A stretch of DNA of 64,000 nucleotides from Bacteroidaceae bacterium (GCA_045631905.1 JAZQVO010000038.1:1440-65439), one strand, 5' to 3'; counted from the first letter of the stretch, positions 22,628-46,020 are shown. The notes: a model not told the origin generated them from the sequence alone. Program-made: numbers and translations.

Positions 22628-24469
22628 TTAACGATAGCGATACATTATATCCTTGGTAGCATCGAACCCTGTCGAAAAATCATTGTTCTCAATAGTTACA
22701 TTCACCACCCTGTCGAAGAGGAAACGATGCTTGTTCCAGTGAAAAGGCACATAGTCGTTATTCTGTACAATCTTGTTATTGCGGAACACAAAGCCATCGA
22801 GCGACTTTGCATAAACGATAGGCACATCGAATGTCTCAAAAACATTATCCTCAATTACCACACCCGTGCCATCGCCACCATGAAAATATTTTGTCTGCGC
22901 CTGCAAGTTAGGAATTTCGGGGAATATCGATATAATACCATCGGTAAATTGGAACATATTAGTAAGCGCATTGATAAAACGGTTATTACGAATGAGCACA
23001 TTACGGCAAGCACCCGTCTCGAACCACCCGTTGCAGTCGCCACACAAAAGAATAGCCGTTCCCGATGTATGGTCGAAGGTGTTATTCTCAACACGCACAT
23101 TCTTGGGCGTACTGAACAAAGCCCCTCTCGCACGATTATTGGCAATCATATTGTCGCAGAAGACCACCTCTGGAGTCCATACAAGATTTTCAACACCATA
23201 ATCGCCACAAGCAATATCGGTAGCAACCACATCGCGCAAAGTAATCTTAAACTCCTTTGCCCCATCGACCGAAGGCTTGTCATACGGCTCAATCTTCTCA
23301 ATCACATTAGGCTCGCACACCTCCATAGTCGAAGAACGCACAAACTGCACTTTGTCGCCCTCGCCTCCCCAATAAAAGCCATACGCCTGCGAGTGCATAT
23401 AACGCCCCACTATAACATTATCGGCAAGACGCTGTGTCACACGCAAATAAGTCCCATGCACATTTATAGCATCGTCCATCATACCCGTGTAAACACCATT
23501 ATTCGAACGAATCAACCCCTTGCAACCCGAAAAGTGAGTAGCATCGGCCTGAGTACTGAAATATCGGCCCTCGCTCTTGCGTGGAACAACATTAAAATAT
23601 TCGAGATCAATATTATCGCTATTCTGCGCCAAAAGACCCATACCCTCGGCATAATAGACGTAAACACGAGAAAGAGTGGTATTCTTGCACTTAGAGACAA
23701 AGATACCCGGTGTGGGGCGTGCATACGAACGCATAGCAACCACGGTGCCCGGCAACAGACGAGAATCGCGCCACGGAGCACGGATAAGACCGTGCGCAAC
23801 CTCCTCGACACCATTCACACCAACCCCAATATCGCTTGTACGATAGACCAAACGACCCGTTTTTCCATCGAAAGCAATTCCGGCCGAAGGAGTCATCTCC
23901 CAATTACTGCCAGACACGACCAACCTTCCACCTGCAACCTTGTAATTTACATAAGGAGCAACACGATAGGTAATATAACCACTCTCGGTATCATTCTCAA
24001 CAACCTCAACCTGAGTAATTTGCGGTACACGCGTATCTATCACTATTGAGCTTAGCTCGCAATTATCGCAGCCAACCATAGCCACAGGCAACATACGCCC
24101 ATTCATTAAAAATTGTGTAGCACCGACATCATCGCCACCATAATATTCGGCACCTTGAAGAGTAAAATTCCTCAAACCCTCCAACACAACAGCCACACGC
24201 TTGGGATTATCCTGGTCGTGGTTCGAAACATAATATTCGCGCACATTTGCGCTATCGGGGTAAAAATCATACTCACCCGCCTCAAAAACCAAACGCGCAG
24301 GCCTTCCTTTACGTTCCGCCTTGATCGTTTCAACAGCCGTTGCAAGCTCTTTTGTCATGTCCTTGCCCGTGTTAGGCACAACACCAAAATATTTTGCCTG
24401 ATAAACCTTTTCGCCGGCACATGCTGTAAATAAAACAGCAGTAAGCACAAATAGAAATATTTTTTTCAT
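22628..24469 (-). CDS. GH110-family alpha-1,3-galactosidase-like parallel beta-helix lipoprotein
   Basis: Lipobox LFTAC. There are long collinear matches to my memory of Bacteroides GlaB: REYYVSNHDQDNPKR, YAEGMGLLAQ, QADATHFSGCKG, MMDDAINVHGTYL, NNRARGALFSTPK, SGTAILLCGDCNGWFETGACRNV, RFINALTNMFQF. Confidence 0.8.
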   Translation of the reverse strand: MKKIFLFVLTAVLFTACAGEKVYQAKYFGVVPNTGKDMTKELATAVETIKAERKGRPARLVFEAGEYDFYPDSANVREYYVSNHDQDNPKRVAVVLEGLRNFTLQGAEYYGGDDVGATQFLMNGRMLPVAMVGCDNCELSSIVIDTRVPQITQVEVVENDTESGYITYRVAPYVNYKVAGGRLVVSGSNWEMTPSAGIAFDGKTGRLVYRTSDIGVGVNGVEEVAHGLIRAPWRDSRLLPGTVVAMRSYARPTPGIFVSKCKNTTLSRVYVYYAEGMGLLAQNSDNIDLEYFNVVPRKSEGRYFSTQADATHFSGCKGLIRSNNGVYTGMMDDAINVHGTYLRVTQRLADNVIVGRYMHSQAYGFYWGGEGDKVQFVRSSTMEVCEPNVIEKIEPYDKPSVDGAKEFKITLRDVVATDIACGDYGVENLVWTPEVVFCDNMIANNRARGALFSTPKNVRVENNTFDHTSGTAILLCGDCNGWFETGACRNVLIRNNRFINALTNMFQFTDGIISIFPEIPNLQAQTKYFHGGDGTGVVIEDNVFETFDVPIVYAKSLDGFVFRNNKIVQNNDYVPFHWNKHRFLFDRVVNVTIENNDFSTGFDATKDIMYRYR

Positions 24470-24580
24470 AATTAAAAATTAATCATTTTTCGCGAAGATA
24501 CAAAAAAGGAAAGAGCACACAATAAATTAATAAACAAAAAGTAATCTTCTTTTATAAAAAGACTTTATTATGTCAAAATT

Positions 24581-25124
24581 TTGAAAAAAAATATTATTAT
24601 TTTTAATATTGCCGAAACTAAGAAACAAAACCATGGAACTAAGCTATTTTTTACCGAAAAGAGACTCACCTACATAGCAATTATCGTTAGTGTACTATCG
24701 CTCCTGCAATACACATGCGATGGGAGCAAAAAAGACAAAACAACCAAAGTAGAAAAGACCCAACTATACAGGAGGCGAAGCGGTAGAAAACTCCTTGACA
24801 GCCTTTAACACCTATGGCGAATACAACAGCGTAACATTCAAAGTAGGTTGCCTCCCCTTGGCAAGAGTAAAATCGACAGAGCCCGAACACCTTATGATAG
24901 GTGCCGACCACAAAGTCATGGCCAACATCGCGCTGTACGAAGATATGGAACCTACGGAATTTACCGTTCCCATCGATGGTTGCCAGCAACTTATATTCTG
25001 GCTGGCAAACAAAGGTGGCAACTCGGCCCAATACGTATTCTACGATATTGTTCTGACAAAAGACAAACTTCCACTCAAAATCCCCGCAAAGTCACAGATG
25101 GAGATACCAGCCCCAGCCGAATAG
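24581..25124 (+). pseudogene. Small lipoprotein-like gene (possible NPCBM-like beta-sandwich) split over at least two frames
   Basis: ORF 24581-24808 (signal-like IAIIVSVLSLLQYTC) and ORF 24795-25124 overlap in different frames. The second frame is open back to the TAG at 24750-24752 and reads ...NYTGGEAVENSLTAFNTYGEYNSVTFKV. Neither piece has an in-frame ATG. An ATG at 24633 is one T6-run frameshift away from the signal peptide frame. Confidence 0.4.
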
Positions 25125-25149
25125 GCGAGAATAAGCTACAACATAAAAG

Positions 25150-25171
25150 AACCGTGGTCGCAACCACGGTT
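25150..25171 (+). terminator. Hairpin after the split lipoprotein gene; the last host-like feature before the AT-rich island
   Basis: aaccgtggt / accacggtt forms a 9-bp stem with a 4-nt loop, and has no strong T-tract. Confidence 0.4.
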
Positions 25172-25284
25172 GAACCAAAATATGATTTGTATTTTGCTGA
25201 TTATCAGTAATACAATAACGAAAACTCTACGAATTGATACCATAAAGTTCCAGTTGTTTTTTTATACAGAGTTTTAATGTAAAA

Positions 25285-26166
25285 TTACAATCCCCAGTTT
25301 TTCAAGTTATATGTGGATTCTATGTCTGCTTCAAGGTCATCATCAAGTTCTGAAAAGAAATCAATCCCTGAAATAATCTCTAGGTCATCTACGCTCATCG
25401 CGCACTTCTGCATATTCTCATTGTTATTATGGTTGTACATAACAAATGCTATAGTTTGTCCTCCTGCAAAAATAGCTTTAAAGAATGCGTCTGGTACAAC
25501 AACTTTATTATTTCCTATAGCCCCATATTCATTATTCCATACAAGAGGACCAGTTACTACAGTAACACAGCCATATCGATTAGCCCACTCTCTAACCTTC
25601 TTTTCGAGAGTATTCCATTGACCTGAGTTCAGTGACTGATTCTGAGGACAACAGTTTGTATAGTAGAAAGTCTCAATCATTGCTTGATGACTCCATTTGA
25701 AATCAGCTGCGGGAGCCATGTGACCTTTCGACCATCCTGAATTTTTATAATCATAGTCGTCAGCTTGTGGAAGGTTTGCAGATGGATCTTGACAGAAATT
25801 AAGACCTTTTCTTTAATATGGCCCGTCTGTTTCGGTGGACATGAGTTCATATTTGACCCATTTGGGAATTTTGTATTTGGGATTATATATAACCTCATAT
25901 CCAGCATACGAGATTGTAGGATATTCTTTCTCCTTTATTTTTGTTGGAGTATCAATTGACGGTGTCGCATTGTTTTCCTTTGATACGTCCTTCGTCAGCT
26001 TTCTATAGTCTGCATATGCAGATATAGATTTCTTCTCTTGATTCTCCTCTATCACTAAGGTGTGAACAGAATCCTTTGTTTCAGTATTCGTATAATTGAT
26101 ACATCCGCATACAAAAGTGAGAGAAAGAATACAAGGGATGAAGTACAATATAGATTTTTTAATCAT
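25285..26166 (-). pseudogene. DNA/RNA non-specific endonuclease (NucA/EndoG-type His-Me finger) lipoprotein, interrupted by one in-frame TAA
   Basis: ORFs 25813-26166 and 25285-25719 are in the same frame. My translation across the gap reads ...STETDGPY*RKGLNFCQDPSANLPQADDYDYKNSGWSKGHMAPAADFKWSHQ...CCPQNQSLNSGQWNTLE, which contains the GH catalytic motif and the PQ..N.G.W..LE block. The N-terminus MIKKSILYFIPCILSLTFVCGC is a lipoprotein signal. Confidence 0.75.
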
Positions 26167-26899
26167 TCATTTTGATATTACCAATTATAGGAACTATATG
26201 TATCAAGAATCGCTGATTGAATTTTTCGTAGTCGCTCTTCTTTATTTCTTGGCCAACGACATATTCAGAACTTTGTTTATAGTCCTCTTCTGTAAATCTA
26301 GGCACACCACCTTCTCCACTACCACTGATTACCAATTCACACTTATCCATATTCGAGAAATCTATAGCAGCCTCTTCTTTCCAAAATCTATGTAATGCTA
26401 GTGCTCTTTGGTAACTTAGTACATCATTATTGTAATGTTCATTTGTGTAGTATCCATCAGCAGATGCTTGTCCCTCGATTACAACAAGATATTTAATATC
26501 CTGTTTGATGGATTTGTTGTTTTGTAACGAGGTTATTGTCTTCTGAATTTCTTTTCCTGCATCAACAATCTGTTTTCTTAGTTCGTTTGCAACTATGATA
26601 TTGGTTTTGTCTTCCTCTAGTTCATAAAGACTAAACTTGCCTTTTTGATATGTTACCTGTATACGGAAGATGTGCTTAACAAATTGAGGATTGAACTCAA
26701 AGTATGTAGGGTCAATATTTTCTACAACTTTGTATATAGATTGAATCTCCTCATACTTTTTTACTATTTTTTTTAGCTCCTCTTCTTTGATTCTAAACCT
26801 ACTATAAGAAACAGCAAAGAGAACCACCATAATTGCAAATAAAGTGGTCATAATATCCACATATGTGGTCCAAAATGAATCTTTATTTCTTTGCTTCAT
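26159..26899 (-). CDS. MotB/ZorB-like protein: N-terminal TM helix with a conserved Asp plus an OmpA-like peptidoglycan-binding domain
   Basis: 246 aa. FWTTYVDIMTTLFAIMVVLF resembles the MotB plug/TM segment (the W..YADfMT pattern, Asp at residue 15). VVIEGQASADGYYTNEHYNNDVLSYQRALALHRFW resembles the OmpA/MotB C-domain (the GHTD...N..LS..RA pattern). Confidence 0.75.
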   Translation of the reverse strand: MKQRNKDSFWTTYVDIMTTLFAIMVVLFAVSYSRFRIKEEELKKIVKKYEEIQSIYKVVENIDPTYFEFNPQFVKHIFRIQVTYQKGKFSLYELEEDKTNIIVANELRKQIVDAGKEIQKTITSLQNNKSIKQDIKYLVVIEGQASADGYYTNEHYNNDVLSYQRALALHRFWKEEAAIDFSNMDKCELVISGSGEGGVPRFTEEDYKQSSEYVVGQEIKKSDYEKFNQRFLIHIVPIIGNIKMND

Positions 26900-26904
26900 A
26901 ATTC

Positions 26905-28575
26905 TTATTTCTTACTGCGAAATATTGACCAAATGCTCGGTTTTTCTGAAACATCATTTGGTTGTTTAATATTTTCAGAAGACGTAGCGATCTTTTTGTT
27001 CATTGAATCTAATGCTTGTTTTACACCGTCAAGCTGTCCCAATACTTTTGAAACTTTTTCAGAAACTTCTGGCTGTGTCTTTACATCAGCTTGTATAGAT
27101 GAAAGAAGCGCAATTAACTCTGGTATTTTTCCCAAATTAGATAAATACTTATTTTGAGCCTCAAGGTCTATTGATTTACGTATTTCAGCAATATATTCAT
27201 CACGTTTTGCCTCTACAGCAGACATACATTCCTTTACAATAACTTCGTATGCAGACTTAAAATCATTCATGGCTGATGCAAAGTCATCTCCATGATTATC
27301 AATAGCTGTACAATATTTTTCGTTCAACTGTTTGATCGCTTTTGTTTGAGCCTCATATATGACTTTTAACTCATCATCTGCAAGTTCTTGATATGATACA
27401 GCAAGATCTGTTTTCTTCTGAATAGCAGTTATCTGTTCTTGAATAAGATTCATTTGGCTATTACCAAGCAATTGAGTCTGAGCGATACTTATTCCAAGCG
27501 CATTAAGAGATTCTTCAAATGTAACAATACGATTAAGAATTGTATTAATCTTTTCGAATACTCTTTCAGGAACACTCATCTGTTCAATGAATTTGGATTG
27601 TGAATCAATAAGTTTAATAGAAGAATCTGCTATTTGTTCTTTTATGTCAGACAACTTGACAATTGAAGTTGATACTGAGTCGAATTTTTCAGATGCAGTA
27701 ATGAAACTATCCAAAGTTTTCAACGTTTCTCTCTGCTTCATTGTCTTAAGCAACTGATCTTGCATTCTTACATTTTCATTGATTAGAGACATATTGTCAC
27801 CCATAGTCTCAACAGCATCGGTTAAAAGTCTTACTTTATCGCCAAAAGAATCTCTTAATGTTTCAGTACATTCATTAAAAGCATCTTTAAAATCTCCAAT
27901 AACACCCTTGAATGCTGGTTCGAAAGTGTTTATAGTTCTATGCAATTTATTAAGTGCAGAGACCATACTAGTACCTAGCACTGGCATCAACTTGACCTGA
28001 ATAAAGTCGAAAAATTTATTTTTATCCTCTTCAACTTTTTTAAGTACATTTGCTGCAGTCGCATTTCCCCACATCATAAGGACTAAGCCTATAAGGCTCG
28101 TTACCATTGATACGATAATACCACCAATCAATGCAGATACAATTTCATCTGACACACCTGCTTTATCAACGCCAATTTTGAAACTTTGAAGGCCGATCCA
28201 AACACCAAAAAATGTACCCATCAAACCCAAATAAGTTGGAAATGATACTTTTGAAGTTGCATCCTCATACAAAGCTTCAAGCCTATTCTGAACTTTATCT
28301 TTGATAATTCCAAAATCAGTTGTACCCTCATTCTTTGCCAAGTATTCGTTAATTTCGTTGACTAACTCATTAAGTTTATTAGATGAGTTACCAATCATTA
28401 TTGAATAACCTGTCTCACCTTTTTCTACCTCCCATTTTTGAGAGTTAGGGAAAAAGTTTTTGAATTTACTAAGCTTTCGCAGTGTTGGGATAAATACCCA
28501 CAACTGCAAAATTGCAAAGAATATGATAGAAATCAACGGATTACTATCCAAGAAAAGATATATTTGTTCCATCAA
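26905..28575 (-). CDS. MotA/ExbB/TolQ-family channel protein with a C-terminal helical tail of about 370 aa (ZorA-like)
   Basis: 556 aa. TM1 spans residues 12-32. PTYLGLMGTFFGVWIGLQSF and LIGGIIVSMVTSLIGLVLMMWGN match the ExbB/MotA core (YLGLfGTvwG..., GIa.AL.tTa.GL). Residues about 186-556 are charged, helix-prone and lack TM segments. Confidence 0.75.
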   Translation of the reverse strand: MMEQIYLFLDSNPLISIIFFAILQLWVFIPTLRKLSKFKNFFPNSQKWEVEKGETGYSIMIGNSSNKLNELVNEINEYLAKNEGTTDFGIIKDKVQNRLEALYEDATSKVSFPTYLGLMGTFFGVWIGLQSFKIGVDKAGVSDEIVSALIGGIIVSMVTSLIGLVLMMWGNATAANVLKKVEEDKNKFFDFIQVKLMPVLGTSMVSALNKLHRTINTFEPAFKGVIGDFKDAFNECTETLRDSFGDKVRLLTDAVETMGDNMSLINENVRMQDQLLKTMKQRETLKTLDSFITASEKFDSVSTSIVKLSDIKEQIADSSIKLIDSQSKFIEQMSVPERVFEKINTILNRIVTFEESLNALGISIAQTQLLGNSQMNLIQEQITAIQKKTDLAVSYQELADDELKVIYEAQTKAIKQLNEKYCTAIDNHGDDFASAMNDFKSAYEVIVKECMSAVEAKRDEYIAEIRKSIDLEAQNKYLSNLGKIPELIALLSSIQADVKTQPEVSEKVSKVLGQLDGVKQALDSMNKKIATSSENIKQPNDVSEKPSIWSIFRSKK

Positions 28576-28578
28576 TGA

Positions 28579-31500
28579 TTAAGCCTTATAATTGGTTAAT
28601 TGTAACAATGCATCTGTTACAGGGATAAAGAATAATGTATCGTTATATTGTTCTTGTCCAGAATACACATCAATAATTTCTGTCTGTAACTTTGAATCCA
28701 GAACATCAGCAATGCCATCATTCACAAGTTCGAGAACTTTATCAGCTACGATTTGTCCGCTCACAGCGCCTTTTCTAATTAATAGACCGAGTACTTCTTT
28801 GTAGACATTATTCATAGCCTTAATCTGGCTGATAACATTTGTCTTGATATCAGTTTTGTATTTGCTTACAAGTTCATTCACATCTTCACATTCGTATTCT
28901 GAACCATCTCCATAATACACTACAGATATAGGCTGCTGAGCGCCTTCCTTGTGATATAATCCACCATAGCAAGTACTTTCCTTGCGTATTTCAGGAAGTA
29001 CAAGCTGAATGTCGTTAATCTCTTTTCCAAAGACTCTAGACATTACTAAGTGTGTAATCTCGGTAAGGAGAGTCTCGTTTGAAGTAATATACTGATCTAT
29101 ATAACGGCTACCATTGCCACTGAATGTTATAGTTCTAGGATAGCTTAACTTTTTAGCATTGAGCATAGAAGCCAGATAGTATACTGTTGCTGTAAAATGA
29201 TACGCGAAAGCAAAAGCAAAGTCATTTCTCAGTTTATCTGCAATCTTTGTTTCAACATTGTTGCTAATCCAAAAGTTGATGATATCCTGAGTTGTACTCT
29301 CATTGTTAGAAATCATATGAGAATTTAGACTCTTCAATGAATCAGTATCAAATCCGATTGTATCCTTATATTTATTGTAGATACCATTCTTTTTTGAGTT
29401 CTTGAATTTATCGAATGCGTTGCCCCACATAACATCACAACCAAAGTGTACAGAGTTTGCAATTTTAGGCTCTCCTTTCTGGAAATATACGAAATCAGTA
29501 GATCCTCCTCCAATATCTACGATTGCAACAGACTCAACGCTCTTGTATTCATCTTTAGCGTTGAAGTAGTAATATGGCGCCTCAGACTCAGTATAGCACT
29601 TAATCTGCTCTTTTGTCGATTCAATATTAAGGATATATTTTGCTTCTTCGGTCCAAATCTTTTCAAAGGTAGCTCTCTCGGTTTCTTTGAAGCTGAGTGG
29701 TCTAAACCAAATCACTCCTGTCTTAGAAATAATACCATTTTCCTGAAGAATGTCAGCCTTGATAATCAGCAACAACTCACGAATAAATACTCTGAGACAT
29801 TTTTCATCAGAAGACCATTTGATATTTGTGATAATTCTTTGATTAGCAGCAGGCTTGCTCTTTTCGTAGAAGAAGGCAATATTGCTGTTATCAAAGAGCG
29901 AAAGTTTAGAAGCGTCCTCCCCTGTAAAACACAATGCTGTTCTGATAGGGAATCTATACGCTTTACCGTCAATGTATGGTGGCACAAACTCAGTCTTAAA
30001 TGCAGTCTTAAATACATCAGGAGTATTATTCTCCCAACATAGAACAGGATTCTGCTGAGTGGATCCAGCCTTGTCGTGCAAGTAGCTTACTATTGGCTTA
30101 TCCATAGTAAGTTGCTGCGGCTCGTTCATTTCGCCTTTCTCCTTACGGGAGATATATGTATTTGATGTACCAAAGTCTATTGCGTATTCAAACACCTTAT
30201 CAGACTGTACCGCTATATCCCAAATGGGGAATAATGCAAATGTATAGTCTTTGCTGTCAATCGTCACAGTAGCAAGAACTGCATCAAAATTTGTATTGAA
30301 TACTTCATAAAATTTAGATCCGCAATCTATATTTAATCCCTGCTGTGAGCGGACAAATGCAGGTTTAACACCACTATCAAATGTATTATCGGTTGCTGTT
30401 TCTATAATCTGAAATTTACCTTCACAATCTCGATAGAAATCCAAACTGATATTATTCGCTGTAAATGTTCTTCTATCATTACCATCAAAAGCAGAAACAA
30501 GCACCTTGAAATAATTATTCTCCTCTTTCTTTGTTGATAAGACATTAGGGAATAGTGCTAAATCAAAGTTAACTTTTGCTGTATCAAGAGATATAATTAC
30601 ACCTTCGCCACTTTTTACAGCAGAGGTCTCAGCGCGATATGTCTTTTTAAATTCTTCACCGTTATGTTTGAATATAACTTCTACTGCCTTGTTCTTCTCT
30701 TGACAAACTGCTGTTAAATCTCCTTTTCCGATTACTTCGAATGCCTGTGATGAGAGAGGTATGAGATAATCGTAGTCTCTCTTAGAATTTTCGTTTACAA
30801 ACTCCATTGTCTGGAACTTGCTAGATGACAATCTATAGGGAACCTTGATAATAGCCTCAGAAAAATAATTCAAAGATTTGAGGTCCTTGCTCGTCATCAC
30901 ATTAACGCCGTTGACCTCAATAGCACTATTGTCGTTACTATAGATCGGACTTAATGAGGTGGCTTCCCAATTAGACTTAATTTCTGGATCCGAGTGGAAC
31001 GATTGAATATAGTCTCTAAGCTCATTGTATTTTGCATCAAGGGTGTCTCCATTGCCAAACAAGAAATTATACATATAATTTTTGAAGGCAACAGGACGTT
31101 TGTCAAAAAGCTGAATATCCTGGAAGTATTTGCCTGAGCTTTCTCTGTAAATTGGCCTGAGCGTATGATAATTCTCACCAACAAAAATCATCTTTCTTGC
31201 CGATCCACCTTTCTCGTCATCCTTGACTTCTTTCAAATCCATGTCTGGTGGAGTAATGAAACCTGTAAATGGAGAACTTGTTGCAAGAAGATATTCTTTA
31301 CCGTCTTGTTCAAGAATAATGAAAAAGAGTTTCTTTTCTCCTAAATCATCATTAAAGTAGCTCTCAATTGCAGTACCGAGAATTGGCACTGCAGTTTTAA
31401 GGGTTTTCAAATCATCGTTGTAATTCCACTCTTTAATAACAATCTTAAGACCTGTACCTTGCCATAAATTCTCATGGTAATTTTTGTTATACAGCAGTTC

Positions 31501-31773
31501 GAATACGTCAAGACAGTTAGAAACAAGACGCTCATATGCACGTCCAGCTTGTTTGGTCGGGTTATTTCTTTCTTCTAAGACTCTTCTAAATGCTTCTTTA
31601 AAAATATAGAATCTTGCAAATGGGGTCGGAAGAGCATTCAATGCTCCGCCGTTATCGGTTCTTTGTTCACCGATATTTCCTAAATCTGCAGCCGTTATAC
31701 GTCCTGGACCAGCAGTCCAATTAAACTCTGATGCCGCCCCCCTTTGAATAATATTTAAATCTACACTACTCAT
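28579..31773 (-). CDS. Large protein: unknown N-terminal region of about 520 aa plus a C-terminal Hsp70/actin-fold (ASKHA) ATPase domain
   Basis: 1064 aa. AIDFGTSNT (residues 531-539, phosphate-1), ESEAPYYY (729-736), VDIGGGSTD (752-760, phosphate-2), TFSGNGSRY (883-891, adenosine-type) and ESTCYGG (932-938) occur in the canonical Hsp70/actin order. Confidence 0.65.
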   Translation of the reverse strand: MSSVDLNIIQRGAASEFNWTAGPGRITAADLGNIGEQRTDNGGALNALPTPFARFYIFKEAFRRVLEERNNPTKQAGRAYERLVSNCLDVFELLYNKNYHENLWQGTGLKIVIKEWNYNDDLKTLKTAVPILGTAIESYFNDDLGEKKLFFIILEQDGKEYLLATSSPFTGFITPPDMDLKEVKDDEKGGSARKMIFVGENYHTLRPIYRESSGKYFQDIQLFDKRPVAFKNYMYNFLFGNGDTLDAKYNELRDYIQSFHSDPEIKSNWEATSLSPIYSNDNSAIEVNGVNVMTSKDLKSLNYFSEAIIKVPYRLSSSKFQTMEFVNENSKRDYDYLIPLSSQAFEVIGKGDLTAVCQEKNKAVEVIFKHNGEEFKKTYRAETSAVKSGEGVIISLDTAKVNFDLALFPNVLSTKKEENNYFKVLVSAFDGNDRRTFTANNISLDFYRDCEGKFQIIETATDNTFDSGVKPAFVRSQQGLNIDCGSKFYEVFNTNFDAVLATVTIDSKDYTFALFPIWDIAVQSDKVFEYAIDFGTSNTYISRKEKGEMNEPQQLTMDKPIVSYLHDKAGSTQQNPVLCWENNTPDVFKTAFKTEFVPPYIDGKAYRFPIRTALCFTGEDASKLSLFDNSNIAFFYEKSKPAANQRIITNIKWSSDEKCLRVFIRELLLIIKADILQENGIISKTGVIWFRPLSFKETERATFEKIWTEEAKYILNIESTKEQIKCYTESEAPYYYFNAKDEYKSVESVAIVDIGGGSTDFVYFQKGEPKIANSVHFGCDVMWGNAFDKFKNSKKNGIYNKYKDTIGFDTDSLKSLNSHMISNNESTTQDIINFWISNNVETKIADKLRNDFAFAFAYHFTATVYYLASMLNAKKLSYPRTITFSGNGSRYIDQYITSNETLLTEITHLVMSRVFGKEINDIQLVLPEIRKESTCYGGLYHKEGAQQPISVVYYGDGSEYECEDVNELVSKYKTDIKTNVISQIKAMNNVYKEVLGLLIRKGAVSGQIVADKVLELVNDGIADVLDSKLQTEIIDVYSGQEQYNDTLFFIPVTDALLQLTNYKA

Positions 31774-31784
31774 AGCCTTATGTC

Positions 31785-33179
31785 TTAGATGGTTTTGGTG
31801 TATTCAGTTATTCCCTCGTATGCAAAATCAAGCAAATATCTCAATGTATTATCGTGCTCGGTTTTGTCCTTCTTGTTACCAGCTTCAATCATCTTAAGAA
31901 GATAGTATGATTCATCCTTCGCTTTCAAGGTAATTCCTTTCACTATATTTGAAAGCTTTTCACCTTTGAGTATTTTATTAAGCGGTGAAAAACCTCTATT
32001 GTTTTCAGATAGTTCTACATACCAATTATGGTATTGATTTACAAAAGTTTTAAGTGCCCCAAAAGGTTGGTCTTGGTAGAAATCTTTATTCAAACCTCTC
32101 GTTTTCTTCAGTGGAAAACGTCTTTCTGTTGGTAGGATATCCAAAAGCAGATCAAAAATCATCATATTAGCAATATCTTTGACCATAGGTTTATAACCTT
32201 CGCCCAAAGAGGACATATCTAGTGCATCAACATTTTCACGTATTGCCCTAGTCATTGCTTGTGGAGTATCTGGAGTCGGTCTGCCTAAGAAATCAAAAAG
32301 TGCAGATGCTGCAACTAACTCAACAAGGTGTGCCGTATCTTTCTGTTCTTTTTCATTGTTCTTATAATTTGCTCTTAAGCTTTGTTCGCCCACATAATAA
32401 AGGAAGTCAGACTTGACGCTCTTCTCATAATAGCTAAGCGCAGCCTTTGTCTTTGTATAGAAGTTTGATGAATCAATGTCACTTCCTGAGGTCGTTGGGT
32501 CATCAAGAGAGTAGTATGGCAACACTGTTACTGCTCCCATAACAGCACTCTGTACCTGAGGATGGGCTTGGTCGTCTCTAATCTTTTTCTCAAGAAGTGG
32601 ATAACCTGATGCGCCAGTTCCACCAAAAATTGAACTAATAATAAATATCCTGTCACCCTTTTCGCAGTGTCTGCGGAATGCATCGTACCAATCGGCACCG
32701 CTTATCATTTCGTTGAGAACTACTGTACCTACATTGGGGTTACCTTTAAAGCCAACCGAAAGACTATTGTTAAGATTCTCTTGTGAATATAATGTCTGAA
32801 TCAAGAATTTATTCACGTCATTATTCGCCAGTTTGCCAACATTAAGATATTGTCCGAATGTTTTTTTCTCAGCCATGCTAGTACTTACACTATTTTGCTG
32901 ATTGTCGAGATCTTCCAATCTTATAATCTTAGTATTAAAGAAGCCTGATGGAGCAGATAATTGTTGTGCTCTGTCTGTTGTCGCGTTCTTATACACTTTG
33001 ATATAGTCTCCAATTGTTGTGGTAAGGATAGCGTTCTCTTCCAAATCAACATGGGGATCTATTATAACAGGAACAATATCATAGCCGCTAGTTCTCATGC
33101 CAGCAGCTGCCATCATCACAACAGACTTCATTACGCGAAGCCCTGTGCCACCTATACAAAAAACAAAAACTTTTGCCAT
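31785..33179 (-). CDS. FtsZ/tubulin-superfamily GTPase-like protein (divergent)
   Basis: 464 aa. VFCIGGTGLRV (T1-like, residues 6-16), GFKGNPNVG (residues 143-151, compare the FtsZ T3 GAGANPEVG) and FGGTGASG (residues 185-192, compare the tubulin signature GGGTG[ST]G). Confidence 0.7.
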   Translation of the reverse strand: MAKVFVFCIGGTGLRVMKSVVMMAAAGMRTSGYDIVPVIIDPHVDLEENAILTTTIGDYIKVYKNATTDRAQQLSAPSGFFNTKIIRLEDLDNQQNSVSTSMAEKKTFGQYLNVGKLANNDVNKFLIQTLYSQENLNNSLSVGFKGNPNVGTVVLNEMISGADWYDAFRRHCEKGDRIFIISSIFGGTGASGYPLLEKKIRDDQAHPQVQSAVMGAVTVLPYYSLDDPTTSGSDIDSSNFYTKTKAALSYYEKSVKSDFLYYVGEQSLRANYKNNEKEQKDTAHLVELVAASALFDFLGRPTPDTPQAMTRAIRENVDALDMSSLGEGYKPMVKDIANMMIFDLLLDILPTERRFPLKKTRGLNKDFYQDQPFGALKTFVNQYHNWYVELSENNRGFSPLNKILKGEKLSNIVKGITLKAKDESYYLLKMIEAGNKKDKTEHDNTLRYLLDFAYEGITEYTKTI

Positions 33180-33181
33180 AA

Positions 33182-33634
33182 CTATTTGCCTAATTTAAGG
33201 AATCTGTACGCATTAGTTGATACAGGTAAATTACAGATAATAAATGATGTTATAAAATAGATAGCAGATGCGTATAACCCATTTATTAATGATATCCTCA
33301 ATATGAAACCAACTTGCTCTTTGAGAGTTGACGAAACCATCGCATTGCCTAAAATCATTGTTAACCCTATCGTAGCGACAACTGTTATTACTAACCAGAT
33401 TACCCAATGGCGTATTCTGTATTTTCTTCCTGGAAGTTTGTTGTAGCCATAATAATAATAGCAAACAACTACAACAGCAACAGCAATGGCTGTAGCAAGA
33501 AAATACATACTAGCAGAGTCAAGGCTATTCCAAAGAGATCGAGCCATATTGTAAAGAGGCTCATTATCCTTATACCTAACCAGGTGCTCAGCCTGATTTG
33601 GCAACCCCCAATCATACAAATTAAGCATTCCCAT
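33182..33634 (-). CDS. Small integral membrane protein (about 3 TM), unknown family
   Basis: 150 aa. The hydrophobic segments are YFLATAIAVAVVVVCYYYY, WVIWLVITVVATIGLTMILG and LINGLYASAIYFITSFIIC. It is separated by 2 nt from both neighbouring genes. Confidence 0.55.
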   Translation of the reverse strand: MGMLNLYDWGLPNQAEHLVRYKDNEPLYNMARSLWNSLDSASMYFLATAIAVAVVVVCYYYYGYNKLPGRKYRIRHWVIWLVITVVATIGLTMILGNAMVSSTLKEQVGFILRISLINGLYASAIYFITSFIICNLPVSTNAYRFLKLGK

Positions 33635-33636
33635 AA

Positions 33637-34920
33637 TTATTGCTTTATTTTAGATATTAATATTCTATTTGGTGTTTCATCCCAGTGATTCTGAATTGCA
33701 TTGAATACACCAGATACAAATCTATCAACAGAGAATGACCCTGTGTAATCATTCTCTGCTGTTGCAGACATTATATTAGTGAAGTCAAGCGTAACAGAGT
33801 AGTCTGGATGGTTTAATGTCCATTCAATGACATCTGATTCAGTGAACATGTTGTAAATTTTAAGTTCTACTTTCGCGGTTGCTTTTCTCTTCAATTCTTT
33901 GTTGAAATGATTGTTTACGTCGATAGAAACCCTTTCTATGCTTACTGATGAGCCGTAACATGATTTTACAGCAAGACTTTCTTTGAAAGCATCTTCGTTA
34001 GTAATTAACCAGCGGAAGTTGCTTAAGTCAATATTTAATACCACTTTACAAGTATCAGAATACTGAACATCAAAGTTTGTAAATGTAGGTTGGTCAACAA
34101 ATTGAAGAGCATTGTCTGGAATACCAAACGAATAAATTGGAGCTTTGTAGTCAAATCCAATTTCAATACAATCACCGTAATCACCATAGTCTTCCAAGAG
34201 TGTAGCAATGCTGTTTCTCATGAAAGCAACATTTTTATCCTTTCCAAGAATCAAAAAATAATAAGGGGAATCTTCTGTAAGTGTACTTCCATTAGCGGCT
34301 AAAAAATCCGATTTGGCCATGATTAAGCTAACCGCCAATCCAGGATACTTGCCAATTACATTGCGAATGTCTGTTTGATATTGTGTAAGCAAAACCTTGA
34401 CATCCTTTTGTTTTTCAGGGCTATACTTCATATCTGAAATTAGAACAGCGCATTGTCCCTCATCAAACCTTAGATTCTCTAGAATAGATTTAAGCATAGT
34501 AGGAACAAGTGTTTCTTGATTGCTCACAAAAGCACCAGAATTCATTTTTGCCCTAAAATCGTTTACAGAATATGTACCTGCAACAGTACCTGCATTAGAA
34601 AGTATGCTAACATCATTGCCTCCAAAATTGGACACTATTGACCATACGTCCTTCTTAAATCGAGTTGCTTTATTGGATCTAAAGAAACCATTCATGCTAC
34701 CACTAACCTCAACATAAAATCCGAGAGCAGAAGGTTTTTCTACAGAGAAAGACTCTTTAATAGAGTCTAGACAATATCCATCGTCTGTAAAATGTGGATC
34801 AGATACTGTGTTAACTGGGTCACAAGAAGAAAGCAGCAAAATCCCAGAGAGCATTATCAAAGCAACAGATAGCTTATTCTTAACCCTGATCAAAATACTG
34901 CAGCACATACTTAAATCCAT
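33637..34920 (-). CDS. vWA-like lipoprotein (degenerate MIDAS ExSxS) with an unknown beta-rich C-terminal region
   Basis: 427 aa. Lipobox LLLSSC (Cys33). GFYVEVSGSMNGFF at residues 67-80 resembles vWA beta1-MIDAS (DxSxS, with Glu in place of Asp). AVLISDMKY resembles the beta4 Asp segment. Confidence 0.5.
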   Translation of the reverse strand: MDLSMCCSILIRVKNKLSVALIMLSGILLLSSCDPVNTVSDPHFTDDGYCLDSIKESFSVEKPSALGFYVEVSGSMNGFFRSNKATRFKKDVWSIVSNFGGNDVSILSNAGTVAGTYSVNDFRAKMNSGAFVSNQETLVPTMLKSILENLRFDEGQCAVLISDMKYSPEKQKDVKVLLTQYQTDIRNVIGKYPGLAVSLIMAKSDFLAANGSTLTEDSPYYFLILGKDKNVAFMRNSIATLLEDYGDYGDCIEIGFDYKAPIYSFGIPDNALQFVDQPTFTNFDVQYSDTCKVVLNIDLSNFRWLITNEDAFKESLAVKSCYGSSVSIERVSIDVNNHFNKELKRKATAKVELKIYNMFTESDVIEWTLNHPDYSVTLDFTNIMSATAENDYTGSFSVDRFVSGVFNAIQNHWDETPNRILISKIKQ

Positions 34921-34968
34921 AATATTATTTGTTGTCTTATAAATTTACAAATTATCTATACCATTAGA

Positions 34969-34995
34969 GGGAATCTCTCATTATGAGAATCCCAA
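34969..34995. repeat. Left inverted repeat (IR-L) upstream of the island operon
   Basis: gggaatctctcattatgagaatcccaa. The reverse complement of 35174-35200 is ggggttctctcattatgagaatcccaa, identical at 25 of 27 positions. Confidence 0.8.
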
Positions 34996-35158
34996 AACTC
35001 AACTCATACTATAAGTCAGGTAATTACAAGAATCACATATCTATTTGCTTTGTGCCAATTAAGGAAACCAAACAGAGAATACCTATAGCAAAAGTTCTAA
35101 AAATGCAATAAGACAACGATTTATTTGCCAAAAATGAGATAATTTTAAATAAAATCTG

Positions 35159-35166
35159 TAATTTTG
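35159..35166 (+). promoter_or_regulatory. Consensus -7 box TAATTTTG inside the IR-bounded segment, currently pointing away from the operon
   Basis: This is an exact TAnnTTTG match 8 nt inside IR-R. No exact match on the operon strand was found between IR-R and the operon ATG. Confidence 0.35.
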
Positions 35167-35173
35167 CAATAAA

Positions 35174-35200
35174 TTGGGATTCTCATAATGAGAGAACCCC
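35174..35200. repeat. Right inverted repeat (IR-R)
   Basis: ttgggattctcataatgagagaacccc, the inverted partner of 34969-34995. The outer ends span 232 bp. Confidence 0.8.
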
Positions 35201-35327
35201 AATCGTTCAATTCTACTATGGAGTTGGCGTCTTTTGATTAGCTCCAATTCATCATAATATATCATAAAAAAAGAGTTCCACTCCTGCTATGGAATGAAAC
35301 TCTATCTGTTTGCTTGATTATGAATCC

Positions 35328-36566
35328 CTAATTCAAAAGGTAATCAAATACATTCATCATTATAATGCCATTGGGCATAGTATGCGTTGGTATGTCATCT
35401 GTTGTGATAATAATTTTTGTAAAAGAGTCGTCTGTTAGGGTTAGTGAGCGTTGTTCCTGCTTCTGTTTGTCTTCATCTGGCAAAGAATAAGCAGATTGTA
35501 TATACACCCTTTCACTACCTCTATTACAAACGAAATCAACCTCAAGTGTGGTTCTGGTAGTCTTACCTTCATCATCTTTTTGATATAAAGTAACGCAGCC
35601 TACATCTACCTTATAGCCTTTACCTATCAAATGGTTATATATGATATTCTCCATAATATGAGTAGGTTCAACTTGTCGGAAATTCAAAAGTGCATTACGC
35701 AACCCAAGATCAGCAAAATAATATTTGTAAGGAGTATCTATATACTTCTTTCCTTTAATATCATAGCGTACTGCTTTATTGATGAGGAAAGAATCAATAA
35801 AATAGTCTATATATGTTTTTATTGTATTGTGGCTTATTTTCACCTTTTTCTCACTAACAAATGTGTTTGCTAGTTTGTTGGGATTAGTCAATGCTCCTAT
35901 ATTAGATGCCAAGAGAGAGAATAATTCTTCTAATTCTGCATCATTTTTCACATTATTGCGGTCGATTATATCGCTTAAATATGTTTCTTTAAGTAACTCA
36001 TGAAGTATTTCTGCTTTTCGTGCTTTATCCTTCTCAATGACAACCATTGGTAACCCTCCATAATAAATATAATCTCGCCACAATGAAGATGTGTCATCAT
36101 TTGACTTTTCTTTTATTTCCTTAAACGATAGCGGCTGAAGGTGGATTTGAACTCCTCTTCCTCTGAATTCAGTAACGATATCAGAAGAAAGGAACTTTGC
36201 ATTACTTCCTGTTACATATACATCAAGGTTATCTATGTGTAGAAAACCATTGAGTACATCTACGAAATCCTCCAGCATCTGAACTTCGTCAATCATCACA
36301 TAATACATCTGCGAATCTTGCTTTGTCAGATTTTCGATATATTCATATAAAGTTTCTGCCTTGCGATATTTACGATGAACAAATGAGTCAAGTCTTATTT
36401 CGATGATATGGCTGGTATCAGCACCATTATCTAAAAGATGTTGTTTATAAAGGTTGAGTAGCAGATAAGATTTGCCAACACGTCGTAACCCAGTAACAAT
36501 CTTTATCAAATGATTATGCTTGCTACTTATCAACTTTTCAATGTAATGTTTTCTTTCGAATTTCAT
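35328..36566 (-). CDS. AAA-family ATPase (AAA_14 / DUF4143-type)
   Basis: 412 aa. The Walker A is GLRRVGKSYLL and the Walker B-like segment is YYVMIDEVQ. The C-terminal region is typical of DUF4143 proteins common on Bacteroides mobile DNA. Confidence 0.7.
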   Translation of the reverse strand: MKFERKHYIEKLISSKHNHLIKIVTGLRRVGKSYLLLNLYKQHLLDNGADTSHIIEIRLDSFVHRKYRKAETLYEYIENLTKQDSQMYYVMIDEVQMLEDFVDVLNGFLHIDNLDVYVTGSNAKFLSSDIVTEFRGRGVQIHLQPLSFKEIKEKSNDDTSSLWRDYIYYGGLPMVVIEKDKARKAEILHELLKETYLSDIIDRNNVKNDAELEELFSLLASNIGALTNPNKLANTFVSEKKVKISHNTIKTYIDYFIDSFLINKAVRYDIKGKKYIDTPYKYYFADLGLRNALLNFRQVEPTHIMENIIYNHLIGKGYKVDVGCVTLYQKDDEGKTTRTTLEVDFVCNRGSERVYIQSAYSLPDEDKQKQEQRSLTLTDDSFTKIIITTDDIPTHTMPNGIIMMNVFDYLLN

Positions 36567-36576
36567 ATAGATACAA

Positions 36577-36680
36577 TTTTTGTGTATTTACACAGTTTTC
36601 GTCTGCAAATATAATAGTTTAATCACAAATCAAGCACGAAACCCGAGACATTTTTTGTGTATTTACACACTTTTTGTCTG
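36577..36680. repeat. Two 29-nt direct repeats with a palindromic core, between the integrase and ATPase genes
   Basis: 36577-36605 is tttttgtgtatttacacagttttcgtctg and 36652-36680 is tttttgtgtatttacacactttttgtctg, identical at 27 of 29 positions. The core tgtgta-tt-tacaca is palindromic. Confidence 0.8.
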
Positions 36681-36692
36681 TAGTGCCATTGA

Positions 36693-37886
36693 TTACCATT
36701 CCCCCAATGCAGCCAAAATCTCACTATTGGCATTATCCACTGCTGAAGTATCAAGCGTAGAAAGGTATATAAGTGTAGTCTTTTCGGAGTCATGGCCGAG
36801 GGCATCACTGATGACGCTAATCGGAATCTGCTTCTGCTTGGCTATGCTTGCCCAGCTGTGACGAGCCACATACAATGTCAAGGGTATCGACAACTGAGCC
36901 ATTTCTCCAACCAGCCGTAAATGACGATTGATACGTTTGGATAGTTTCTTGTAAGTTTGCCTGTCATCAGCATCATTCGTGAGTATGGGCAACAAGTATT
37001 TGGTATCTTTGGGATATTTGTCGATGATAGTTTGCATCTGCTGTTCCCAACGAATATCCAATCGTCCACCAGTTTTCTTGCGATAATATGTCAAGTGTCC
37101 ACCTCGAAGATTATCATAAGTCAGGTATGCCATATCAATGAATGACATTCCTCTGAGGCCAAGACTCAACAAAAAAATATCCCTTGCATATGATAGATGC
37201 GGATATAGCCTCAAATCCAAATCCTTGATTCTTTTGATGGCATCAATATCAATTGCTCTTTTTACTGTTTGGGCAATACCCGTATATACACTTTGGAATG
37301 GAGCTACGGCTTCAACAAGATGCAATTTTACTGCTTTGTTAAGTACGGTTCTCAGCGTCCGCATATAAAAGGAAATGCTGTTCATGGTTAGGTTTCTGTT
37401 CTTTAAGTAACGTTCATAATCTTCCATGACTTCTGCTGTAATCTCATAGAGCATAATATCTTCATCGTTATTGAACTTGATGAAACTATGCAAGGCGGAT
37501 ATATATGTCTCACTTGTTCGTGTACGTCCCATATCTGCCAAACGTTCAGCTTGAGATAACAGAAAACCAGAGAAAGACTGCTGGCGATTCAATTCTTCAA
37601 ATTTAGATATAATGCATCCAAAATCTAAAGGCGTTCCTTTTTTAATATGTCGTTTGGCGATGGCATATATTTGTTGCATCTCCCAATCGGTCCGATTCTT
37701 GATTTTGATGAGTGAGCTGCTGTCGGTAAGTAATCGACCGTGTTGTTTATCCCATTCATTGGGGTAAATTCGATAACCAGATGCATAAGTGTGCGTTGTC
37801 CGCTTAATGATTATCTGGTAATAAAGCATACCATCATTACCCTTGATGGCTGAAGGACGATAACATAACTTGACTGATACTCCCAT
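36693..37886 (-). CDS. Tyrosine site-specific recombinase/integrase
   Basis: 397 aa. The N-terminal SAM-like region and the C-terminal catalytic region ARHSWASIA...ALGHDSEKTTLIYL supply the R-H-R-Y family residues. Confidence 0.85.
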   Translation of the reverse strand: MGVSVKLCYRPSAIKGNDGMLYYQIIIKRTTHTYASGYRIYPNEWDKQHGRLLTDSSSLIKIKNRTDWEMQQIYAIAKRHIKKGTPLDFGCIISKFEELNRQQSFSGFLLSQAERLADMGRTRTSETYISALHSFIKFNNDEDIMLYEITAEVMEDYERYLKNRNLTMNSISFYMRTLRTVLNKAVKLHLVEAVAPFQSVYTGIAQTVKRAIDIDAIKRIKDLDLRLYPHLSYARDIFLLSLGLRGMSFIDMAYLTYDNLRGGHLTYYRKKTGGRLDIRWEQQMQTIIDKYPKDTKYLLPILTNDADDRQTYKKLSKRINRHLRLVGEMAQLSIPLTLYVARHSWASIAKQKQIPISVISDALGHDSEKTTLIYLSTLDTSAVDNANSEILAALGEW

Positions 37887-37888
37887 AA

Positions 37889-39031
37889 TTATCTCCTCCT
37901 TCTTGATGTATTATTATCATTCTTCTTCTCTCCCCAAGGCATATCAGATGATGAGCCACCTCCACCTGTTCCAACATGAGTCTGTGCTGGACCACCTGAA
38001 AGCATCTCAAATGTAGCACCAAGCAGTTGGGCCTGAATCTGGCTCACTTGCTCAAACGGCTCAAAGATTTCATTGACCAGTTCATATTCGGTAAGCTCAC
38101 CATTCAGATACTTTTGTATAACAGGATCGTACCACTCGAAATACTTCGCATCCTCAAATGTCTCATTTTCCACCTTAGTTTGAATGCGAAGGTTTGGTAT
38201 GTTTGAATGGCGAGGCGACATGCGAATACCTGTGAGTGTTGCACCCGATGACAGGCGATATCGATGCGGATTGGCCTTTCTGTCAAGCGTGTCAATACGT
38301 TGCTTCTGCTTTTCTATGGTAGCTTCGTGAGCAATATTCTTTCGCTCGGCAATCTCGGCTCGTTTAATGGCCTTCTCAATTTCCGCCATATAACCATTGC
38401 GGTATTTCGCTAATTCTGCCTTATGTTGCTCCTTAAGTTGTAGTTGATCTTGCTCTAATTGAGCAATGCGTTGCTGTAGCTTTTCTATCTGCTTGTCCTT
38501 ATCCGATAGCTTTTTCTTTGCTTCTGCCAAATCTCCCGTACCGAAGAATGACAATATTTTGGAACGACCTTCACGTGCCTTTTCAACTTCTGCCTGCAAT
38601 CTCTCTATGTTGTCTTCATATTTCAACATCAGCTCACGATAATATTGGCCATTTGACTTATGACGGGCTGTAGAACCCACTACACCACGTTGCAAACCGA
38701 ATGGCTTCATAGCAATGGCATAGGTGTTCTGATAGTGGAACAACTTTCCACGAGCCATTACATCATCTGCGGATAATCGTGGTCCACTTTTGGTTGCATA
38801 TTTCTTGTCACCCTCACGCTCCTTGCGTCTGCGTTCTGTGGTCACGATAGGTGTGACGGTAGCATGAAGGTGAGGAGTCTTTTCATCCATGTGCAGCACA
38901 CACGATACAAGATTCTCTTCACCGAATGTATCTTTGAGCCATGACAGATTGGCCTTGATCCATTGGTCAAGTTTTCCGTCATGTTGTAGTTTCATCATCT
39001 GCTCGTGTGTTCCAGTCAGGATGATGCGAGC
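37889..39031 (-). pseudogene. MobV/Mob_Pre-type relaxase lacking its N-terminal catalytic segment
   Basis: The HMDEKTPHLHATVTPIV motif (HxDE..PHxH) sits at residue 36 instead of roughly 120. The frame is open only back to the TAG at 39034-39032 (ARIILTGTHEQMMKL...). The rest is a coiled-coil and Gly/Ser-rich tail. Confidence 0.6.
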
Positions 39032-39040
39032 CTATATCTC

Positions 39041-39700: not shown

Positions 39701-39706
39701 TAAAAT

Positions 39707-41323: not shown

Positions 41324-41350
41324 GGTTTTTATAAATCATCAGGGTTAATA

Positions 41351-41917: not shown

Positions 41918-41921
41918 ATCG

Positions 41922-42708: not shown

Positions 42709-46020
<3,312 letters not shown>

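Follow-up and report, generated by a model that had tools for sequence, protein, structure and literature searches.

The window, as we call the whole stretch of 64,000 nucleotides (nt) analysed here, comes from a Bacteroidaceae bacterium (GCA_045631905.1, JAZQVO010000038.1:1440-65439) and carries on its minus strand a compact gene cassette, among whose members is an open reading frame (ORF) at 28579..31773 that starts with ATG and encodes a protein of 1064 amino acids (aa), the stop codon being included in the coordinates. This protein, referred to as the target in the following, contains a predicted ATPase domain of the actin/Hsp70 fold (ASKHA superfamily) and accompanies a tubulin-like GTPase, whose gene lies directly upstream. 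On balance we slightly favour the reading that the target is an FtsA-like ATPase partner of this GTPase within a Zorya-like, stator-coupled and probably defensive system.

From 34920 down to ~25285 the cassette encodes a lipoprotein, a small membrane protein, the tubulin-like GTPase, the target, a ZorA-like and a ZorB-like stator subunit and a nuclease, all on the minus strand. These genes are separated by gaps of 2, 2, 11, 3 and 5 nt and, at the last junction, share an 8-nt overlap, a tight packing that is consistent with one operon. An earlier note, made from the sequence alone, had placed a 1064-aa protein at 28579-31773 without naming a strand, 11 nt from the tubulin-like gene and 3 nt from the ZorA-like gene: The ORF was confirmed and assigned to the minus strand, and both distances hold when the TTG start of the ZorA-like gene is counted. 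The plus strand of the same interval shows stops throughout when translated, and a 198-aa ORF with a GTG start at 29446..30042 on that strand, which lies entirely within the target gene, was treated as spurious antisense. No transmembrane (TM)-like segment was detected in the target (maximum KD19 = 1.31), which is a soluble, cytoplasmic multidomain protein of five parts.

The ASKHA ATPase domain occupies aa 521-950 (28924..30213) and was delineated by an AlphaFold2 model in combination with Foldseek. The full-length model, built on an alignment of homologues, has a mean pLDDT of 85.7 and a pTM of 0.73, and its top match in the PDB is MreB (7bvz, E = 1.8e-8, probability 1.00, TM-score relative to the matched structure 0.55). 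Further PDB matches at probability 1.00 comprise the nucleotide-binding domain (NBD) of Hsp70/DnaK, ParM, BeeR and Arp; altogether, the ASKHA matches range from E = 1.8e-8 to ~3e-6 with TM-scores of 0.5-0.58 relative to the matched structures. The model thereby conforms to the layout of the superfamily, in which two RNase-H-like alpha/beta subdomains enclose the nucleotide cleft. Within this domain the earlier note had listed four nucleotide-binding motifs, each of which is found at exactly the residues given, and we scored their invariance in 46 full-length homologues of 44-88% identity. In the phosphate-1 motif AIDFGTSNT (aa 531-539, 30157..30183) the residues D533, G535, T536 and T539 are invariant, and in the phosphate-2 motif VDIGGGSTD (aa 752-760, 29494..29520) the same is true of D753, I754, G756, G757 and D760. 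The adenosine-binding motif TFSGNGSRY (aa 883-891, 29101..29127) retains F884, G886, N887, G888 and S889 throughout, and the Connect-2 motif ESTCYGG (aa 932-938, 28960..28980) retains E932, T934, G937 and G938. A fifth motif, absent from that list, lies 23 residues ahead of phosphate-2: TESEAPYYY (aa 728-736, 29566..29592), with E729, S730, A732 and P733 invariant, which we take to be Connect-1, the counterpart of NEPTAA in Hsp70 and EEPMAA in MreB. Because the key residues are invariant in the 46 homologues, the motif matches are not due to chance; beyond this set, the motifs are kept in about 250-290 of 300 family members, down to ~25% identity. The ASKHA call had been made to depend on the predicted fold of aa 521-950 and on the persistence of the motifs among homologues, and on both points it was borne out. 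Modelled fold and motif conservation together mark aa ~521-950 as a true ASKHA domain in which all five nucleotide-binding motifs are intact, and the target would accordingly be expected, as judged from these motifs, to hydrolyse ATP.

Assignment to a particular family within the superfamily was pursued by profile searches and turned out to be negative throughout. The single Pfam match of the target is to Ppx-GppA (PF02541), with 26.4 bits against a cut-off of 27 and covering aa 729-785 on a model of 285 positions; in NCBIfam, TIGR03706 reaches 26 bits against a cut-off of 307, and in PDB sequence and profile searches exopolyphosphatase (Ppx) aligns over the phosphate-2 motif alone (E = 0.16-0.4). 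Membership in the Ppx/GppA phosphatases was rejected, as no full-length match above a curated cut-off exists. The FtsA model (PF14450) scores 14.9 bits against a cut-off of 31.8, and MreB_Mbl is matched in relatives only (E = 0.1-0.35); with both Pfam models sub-threshold and extending over ~30 residues, membership in the FtsA, MreB or ParM families was rejected as well. FcmB, a newly described cyanobacterial actin-like family, was considered as a relative and found to be unrelated, being ParM-derived. The target is, consequently, a member of the ASKHA superfamily that stands outside every defined family within it that was tested.

The Hsp70/DnaK family deserves separate consideration, for the target might act as a chaperone or switch of the Hsp70 type, using ATP-driven conformational cycles to remodel or threshold either the polymer of the tubulin-like protein or an effector. 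The NBDs of Hsp70 and DnaK match the model nearly as well as MreB does, and the beta-sandwiches and helical C-terminus described below could serve as client-binding modules. Conflict systems combining tubulin or HSP70 modules have moreover been predicted: Kaur et al. 2020 (PMC7159879) placed tubulin and HSP70 components in GTPase-centred systems, which share with the present cassette the concept of tubulin- and HSP70-fold NTPases as assembly or threshold modules. Those systems, found mainly in Firmicutes and Actinobacteria, are defined by a DO-GTPase together with GAP1; tubulin and HSP70 occur there in non-overlapping neighbourhood themes, HSP70 in the company of GrpE and DnaJ, and a stator is not mentioned (PMC7159879). 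Among the operon proteins of the window, Pfam and NCBIfam searches revealed no P-loop GTPase, GrpE or DnaJ family. The Pfam HSP70 model does not match the target even at E <= 10, and the beta-sandwiches precede the NBD instead of following it, so that the architecture of an Hsp70 substrate-binding domain is absent. Membership in the Hsp70/DnaK family proper was rejected on these last two grounds, and a chaperone-like switch strikes us as improbable.

The regions flanking the ATPase domain account for the remaining four parts of the target. Residues 1-260 (30994..31773) consist of a conserved N-terminal tail and an alpha/beta domain without known relatives: The tail (aa 1-50) is modelled with low pLDDT and nevertheless shows 74% mean identity, and the domain spans aa 53-260 in the AlphaFold2 models. 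At their junction lies LPTPFARF (aa 48-55, 31609..31632), the local form of a P-[ST]-P-[FLY]-[AGS]-R signature that is present in 290 of 300 members. Its P49 and P51 never vary and its R54 is conserved to at least 90%, even among members of ~20% identity. Across 24 members, down to ~16-25% identity, the N-terminal invariants are P49, P51, A61, S167-P168-x-T170 and R226. Judging from this conservation, aa 1-260 form a strongly constrained domain. It is followed by a beta-rich, poorly conserved linker (aa 261-350, 30724..30993, mean identity 0.42), into which distant relatives carry a long insert, and by two immunoglobulin (Ig)-like beta-sandwich domains (aa 351-520, 30214..30723). At the opposite end, aa 951-1064 (28582..28923) constitute a helical region with a conserved LFF.P motif (aa 1047-1052) that is found in 204 of 300 members.

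A separate AlphaFold2 model of aa 1-525 (pLDDT 83.7) retrieved with Foldseek nothing other than Ig-folds from the PDB (Fab, MAdCAM, VEGFR; E down to 7e-5) and poxvirus Ig-like proteins from BFVD, lists so uniformly composed of Ig-folds that a weaker match to aa 50-260 would rank hidden beneath them. Pfam, NCBIfam, PADLOC and PDB sequence profile searches gave no match to aa 1-260, and the profile built from the first 350 residues remained without a hit in the PDB. The statement that both ends of the protein match nothing recognisable therefore stands for aa 1-260 and 951-1064 and falls for aa ~350-520, the two Ig-like sandwiches. It had further been suggested that a nuclease or pore-former is hidden in the N-terminal half, which would make the target the killing subunit of the system, with a toxic effector within its first 520 residues. 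The strong conservation of aa 1-260, the most conserved part of the protein, would fit this idea, since the invariant residues P49, P51, S167, P168, T170 and R226, together with the at least 90% conserved R54, could mark an active site, and the operon otherwise shows no cytoplasmic effector. However, no enzyme or pore-former family emerged from Pfam, NCBIfam, PADLOC, PDB profiles or Foldseek against PDB and BFVD, which yielded Ig-like matches only; hydrophobic or amphipathic TM-like segments are absent, and aa 350-520 are plain Ig-like sandwiches. We consequently regard a hidden effector as very improbable and suppose that the N-terminal segment and the Ig-like domains provide protein-interaction surfaces rather than enzymatic activities.

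The gene directly upstream of the target (31785..33179) encodes a 464-aa tubulin/FtsZ-like GTPase with the motifs GGTG, GNPNVG and SIFGGTGASG. Its membership in the tubulin/FtsZ superfamily, in keeping with the term "tubulin-like" of the earlier note, is supported by these motifs, by a match to PF00091 (2e-4), by CetZ as best PDB match (3zid, E = 0.034) and by Tubulin_2 (PF13809), which is matched by 17 of 22 relatives at E < 0.01 (best 3.8e-5). For the analysis of gene neighbourhoods we assembled 79 loci from genomes and public assemblies, ~80 metagenomic loci retrieved with distant members as seeds, three IMG/VR loci and several individual look-ups, and searched the ORFs of all of them with profiles derived from the operon proteins of the window. 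Among loci with room for it, a tubulin-like gene lies directly upstream of the target gene in 137 of 139 (116/117 close, 21/22 distant); of the remaining two, one has a truncated ORF call and the other an 820-nt gap. The adjacency extends to Pedobacter and Picosynechococcus and, interrupted by one gene, to Synechocystis. In Synechocystis sp. LKSZ1 a Uma2-family endonuclease gene (L168:8408-8968) is inserted between the tubulin-like and the ASKHA gene, the only locus seen in which another gene splits the pair.

Moreover, the two proteins occur as one polypeptide: Three independent fusions, from at least three metagenomic lineages, join a tubulin-like protein to a complete ASKHA protein (P0200, L080:2304-6968, 1554 aa; P0231, 1611 aa; L147:7405-12141). 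As such fusions constitute Rosetta-stone evidence, they argue for a physical or functional partnership. The target is the dedicated partner of the tubulin-like GTPase, and their genetic partnership is essentially obligate; the physical link between the two, which the earlier note had surmised from gene spacing, is strongly indicated by the near-invariant adjacency together with the three fusions.

The pair is itself part of a larger conserved unit. Upstream of the tubulin-like gene lie the genes of a polytopic membrane protein of 150 aa (33182..33634) and, as the first gene, of a predicted lipoprotein of 427 aa with an LLLSSC signal (33637..34920), and equivalents of ~150 and ~430 aa are conserved at this position across loci. 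The lipoprotein shows a pattern, E-x-SGSM...T...VLISD, that is conserved in 22 relatives and reminiscent of the MIDAS motif of vWA domains; Pfam and PDB profile searches gave no vWA match. Together with the tubulin-like GTPase and the ASKHA protein, the lipoprotein and the small membrane protein constitute an invariant four-gene core, which recurs in Pedobacter (438-149-483-1189 aa), on a plasmid of Picosynechococcus (409-170-509-1100 aa) and in Synechocystis.

The pairing invites comparison with FtsA and FtsZ. The target has the same fold and the same five motifs as FtsA, MreB and ParM, its best structural matches, and like FtsA it is encoded beside a tubulin-superfamily GTPase, to which it is sometimes fused. 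It differs from these proteins in having three times their size, since its fold is extended by 520 aa at the N-terminus and by a helical stretch of 110 aa at the C-terminus. The gene order here is tubulin-like followed by ASKHA.

A different kinship is suggested by the UniRef name "Virulence factor SrfB" of one distant Pedobacter member (P0136), according to which the target would be a diverged SrfB-type virulence factor, the tubulin-like protein would correspond to SrfA and the pair would be kin of the enterobacterial srfABC toxin operon. The gene sizes agree with this notion, as SrfA and SrfB of Xenorhabdus are encoded by 1395 bp and 3021 bp (PMC6950479), near those of the 464-aa/1064-aa pair. 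Against it, the Pfam SrfB family was matched by none of 45 members (5 searched at E <= 10, 40 at E <= 0.01) and NCBIfam gave none either, and all other named members are labelled "hypothetical protein"; the lone SrfB label is probably an automatic prediction. Neither a homologue search started from P0136 nor a plasmid tblastn search nor the literature lent support to an SrfB identity, the comparison being made through family models. We give this kinship very little credence.

Downstream of the target follow the genes of the stator. The 556-aa ZorA-like A subunit (26905..28575) contains MotA/ExbB-type TM helices (LGLMGTFFGV) and a cytoplasmic tail of ~350 aa whose profile matches coiled-coil proteins. 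In the PDB, the profile of its family finds 8vvn, a 696-aa protein with a MotA/TolQ/ExbB domain (9e-5), and ZorA itself (8qyk, 5e-3); the PADLOC ZorA models are matched by relatives down to 1e-8 and by the window's own protein weakly. The 246-aa ZorB-like B subunit (26159..26899) comprises a plug, a TM helix and an OmpA-like domain, matches PADLOC ZorB (7e-11) as well as Pfam MotB_plug and OmpA, and has a conserved Asp at the TM helix (YVDIMTTLF), presumably the equivalent of Asp32 in MotB. NCBIfam scores of both subunits are far under the cut-offs. The designation of the downstream neighbour as ZorA-like is thus upheld by PDB profile and PADLOC matches, with a ZorB-like gene next to it.

Both stator genes lie downstream of the target gene in 89/89 close and in 10/13 distant loci; in gut Bacteroidales the core is without exception succeeded by this proton-driven type of stator, and often by a secreted nuclease as well. 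In the distant loci one extra gene of ~400 aa usually separates the ASKHA from the ZorA-like gene (L084:3799-5004, with equivalents in L141, L143 and L152-L157; no Pfam hit is on record), and in Synechocystis, which lacks the stator, a 399-aa gene follows the ASKHA gene. Constant co-occurrence of the target's homologues with both neighbours, a point raised by the earlier note, thus essentially holds for the tubulin-like gene and only partly for the MotA-like gene, which is very frequent but missing in some lineages. That the target forms a bridge between the tubulin-like GTPase and the ZorA tail is plausible.

With Zorya the cassette has in common a ZorA-like subunit with a long tail, a ZorB-like subunit that combines plug, TM Asp and OmpA-like domain, and its location in a mobile island. 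Its cytoplasmic partners are different, namely a tubulin-like GTPase and an ASKHA ATPase; four extra core genes precede the stator, and some relatives have no stator. PADLOC found none of ZorC, ZorD, ZorE, ZorF and ZorG among the other operon proteins, and the resemblance of the operon to Zorya is accordingly confined to the stator.

The island is recognisable by its base composition, with a GC content of 0.33-0.39 across ~24-37.5 kb compared to 0.44-0.52 in the flanks. Upstream of the cassette, a tyrosine integrase is encoded at 36693-37886 and a Mob_Pre relaxase at 37889-38998, and between integrase and cassette, on the minus strand, lies an ATPase with AAA_14 and DUF4143 domains (35328-36566) that PADLOC reports as candidate PDC-S01 (7e-115). 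The low-GC region of ~24000-42500 is probably an integrated mobilisable element. It also contains DUF1963 and MORN-repeat genes and is flanked by SecA (42709-46020) and a glycosidase-like gene (22628-24469); no tRNA genes were found in 20-47 kb of the window.

Directly after the ZorB-like gene, and overlapping its stop, begins a gene of the Endonuclease_NS (NucA-like) family (25285..26166), whose product carries a signal peptide and would be secreted or a lipoprotein. An in-frame TAA at 25813-25815 breaks this gene, with the part encoding the catalytic SGWSKGHMAP downstream of the TAA; the break is due either to loss of the gene's function or to an error in the sequencing. In 34 of 79 loci an intact orthologue was detected (258 aa in L001 and L002). 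Among 148 non-redundant flanking genes from other loci, given here as raw counts, the recurrent families are Endonuclease_NS (17), DUF4357 (7) and AAA_14/DUF4143 (5), accompanied by DUF1016/YhcG nucleases, Abi_2, AAA_15, AAA_21, Fic, SNase and RhuM. An Asp-protease and a protein-kinase fusion are further accessories. By analogy, this variable periphery and the mobile context resemble those of conflict systems.

Operons with a related composition were described by Makarova and Koonin 2010 (PMC2875224), who reported FtsZ-like 1 (FtsZl1) genes together with MotA/OmpA genes and vWA, for example in Deinococcus (DR_0540-0536) and Anabaena (Ava_1847-1850). A divergent tubulin-superfamily GTPase, membrane proteins and MotA/OmpA(MotB)-type genes are common to both. 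The FtsZl1 proteins listed there are single proteins of 900-1150 aa, and that paper mentions no actin/Hsp70-fold component (PMC2875224), in contrast to the 464-aa tubulin-like protein and the separate 1064-aa ASKHA protein found here, the comparison resting on the published descriptions. The cassette joins elements of known kinds, namely an ASKHA ATPase, a stator system resembling Zorya and an operon of the FtsZl1 type, and it couples tubulin-fold and actin-fold NTPases to a proton motor in a wholly uncharacterised setting that is both widespread and mobile.

For FtsZl1 operons holding vWA, MotA and OmpA genes a role in membrane remodelling has been proposed (PMC2875224), and the present cassette could likewise encode a housekeeping machine for membrane remodelling or envelope trafficking, in which the proton-driven stator would move or position a tubulin/actin-fold assembly tied to the lipoprotein and the ASKHA protein would be a filament or adaptor subunit. 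The presence of a lipoprotein and a membrane protein in the core agrees with such a function, as do the top structural matches, the filament-forming MreB and ParM, and the cyanobacterial and Pedobacter versions without stator or nuclease. The Agl-Glt machinery of Myxococcus, composed of a MotAB-like motor, MreB and a GTPase, may be likened to a machine of this kind. Yet the cassette of the window is located in a low-GC island with integrase and relaxase, a plasmid-borne copy exists, and the stator is of the Zorya type and not of the TolQ or AglR type. Furthermore, the set of accessories (nuclease, Asp-protease, response regulator, kinase fusion) changes from locus to locus, as it typically does in conflict systems. 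We consider a housekeeping role rather unlikely.

We therefore return to the FtsA-like partner in a Zorya-like, probably defensive system. According to this reading, the ATPase would bind assemblies that the tubulin-like GTPase forms at the membrane and would organise or regulate them, in the manner of FtsA acting on FtsZ, with the N-terminal and Ig-like modules serving as interaction surfaces and not as enzymes. In the versions with a stator, an envelope-sensing system of the Zorya kind, aimed at phages or other mobile DNA, would use the NTPase pair as its output in the cytoplasm. Direct binding, membrane recruitment and the role in defence are the parts of this proposal that go beyond gene content, and each is put forward as a presumption.

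Several observations weigh against it. First, several lineages keep the pair and lack the stator: Pedobacter, in which the gene next to the ASKHA gene encodes a response regulator instead, two cyanobacteria, and Prevotella sp. oral taxon 299. This implies that stator coupling is not intrinsic to the target, which is consequently not primarily a motor adaptor. Second, no cytoplasmic effector is evident: The sole recurrent enzyme is the signal-peptide nuclease, which occurs in less than half of the loci and is broken in the window. Third, PADLOC assigns no known defence family to the target, its tubulin-like partner or the two genes that open the core, and many flanking genes in other loci are housekeeping or ordinary metabolic genes, which also speaks for a remodelling machine. 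Finally, Foldseek cannot tell a polymerising actin-like protein from a chaperone-like Hsp70 NBD.

A bolder version of the defensive reading, which we entertain with considerable doubt, sees in the cassette a new class of stator-coupled immunity, in which a Zorya-like motor would sense a breach of the envelope and trigger the tubulin-fold GTPase and the actin-fold ATPase. The four-gene core would then be an ancient and widespread cytoskeletal-type conflict module that individual lineages have wired to different inputs and outputs, among them stator, nuclease, protease, kinase and response regulator, and the conserved N-terminal domain with its P-x-P-F-A-R signature might constitute a new interaction or sensor domain.

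Tubulin-fold and actin-fold NTPases of bacteria are known mainly from cell division, from cell shape and from the positioning of plasmid or phage DNA. Here, the members of a large unnamed family of actin-fold ATPases are tied genetically to a tubulin-like GTPase and mostly to a proton motor of the Zorya type as well, on mobile DNA. If the system is defensive, it would add a cytoskeletal-type output to Zorya-like systems and offer a tractable route to the question what ZorAB-type motors signal to; if it is not, dominant gut bacteria would possess a membrane-associated tubulin/actin machine that is so far undescribed. Either way, the cassette of 6-7 genes in combination with point mutants makes the FtsZ-like 1 operon prediction of 2010 directly testable.

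The size of the family was assessed at two depths. A word-indexed search returned 362 close homologues of ~1050-1075 aa from Bacteroidales genomes or metagenomes, all annotated as "hypothetical". An exhaustive profile search of 1.84 billion cluster representatives, with family clusters counted at 50% identity, retrieved 1400 clusters at E < 1e-3, of which 804 also reach E < 1e-30; almost all measure 1000-1200 aa and align along their whole length. The named members belong to Adhaeribacter, Pedobacter, Mucilaginibacter, Alistipes, Bacteroides and Prevotella as well as to the cyanobacteria Picosynechococcus, Synechocystis and Snowella; the family accordingly ranges over Bacteroidota and cyanobacteria and is abundant in gut and rumen Bacteroidales. 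It has neither a Pfam entry nor a family name, and no paper in the library that was searched gives an account of it or of its gene combination.

Isolated phage genomes gave no homologue of the target. The complete six-gene cassette is present on three viral-classified IMG/VR contigs of 47-104 kb (L165-L167), which may be prophage-adjacent or misclassified mobile elements. Near-identical cassettes of the Bacteroidales type were also seen on short contigs of metagenome-assembled genomes (L006, L009, L018, L028, L032, L040, L043, L050 and L074) labelled Methanomethylophilaceae, Lachnospiraceae, Roseburia, Clostridia, Opitutae, Escherichia coli and Erysipelotrichaceae; these off-lineage occurrences most likely reflect contamination during binning and not the true host range. 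In the cyanobacterial branch, one member of 1418 aa (P0352) contains protein-kinase domains (PF00069 and PF07714, from precomputed Pfam annotation), which suggests lineage-specific fusions to effectors or regulators.

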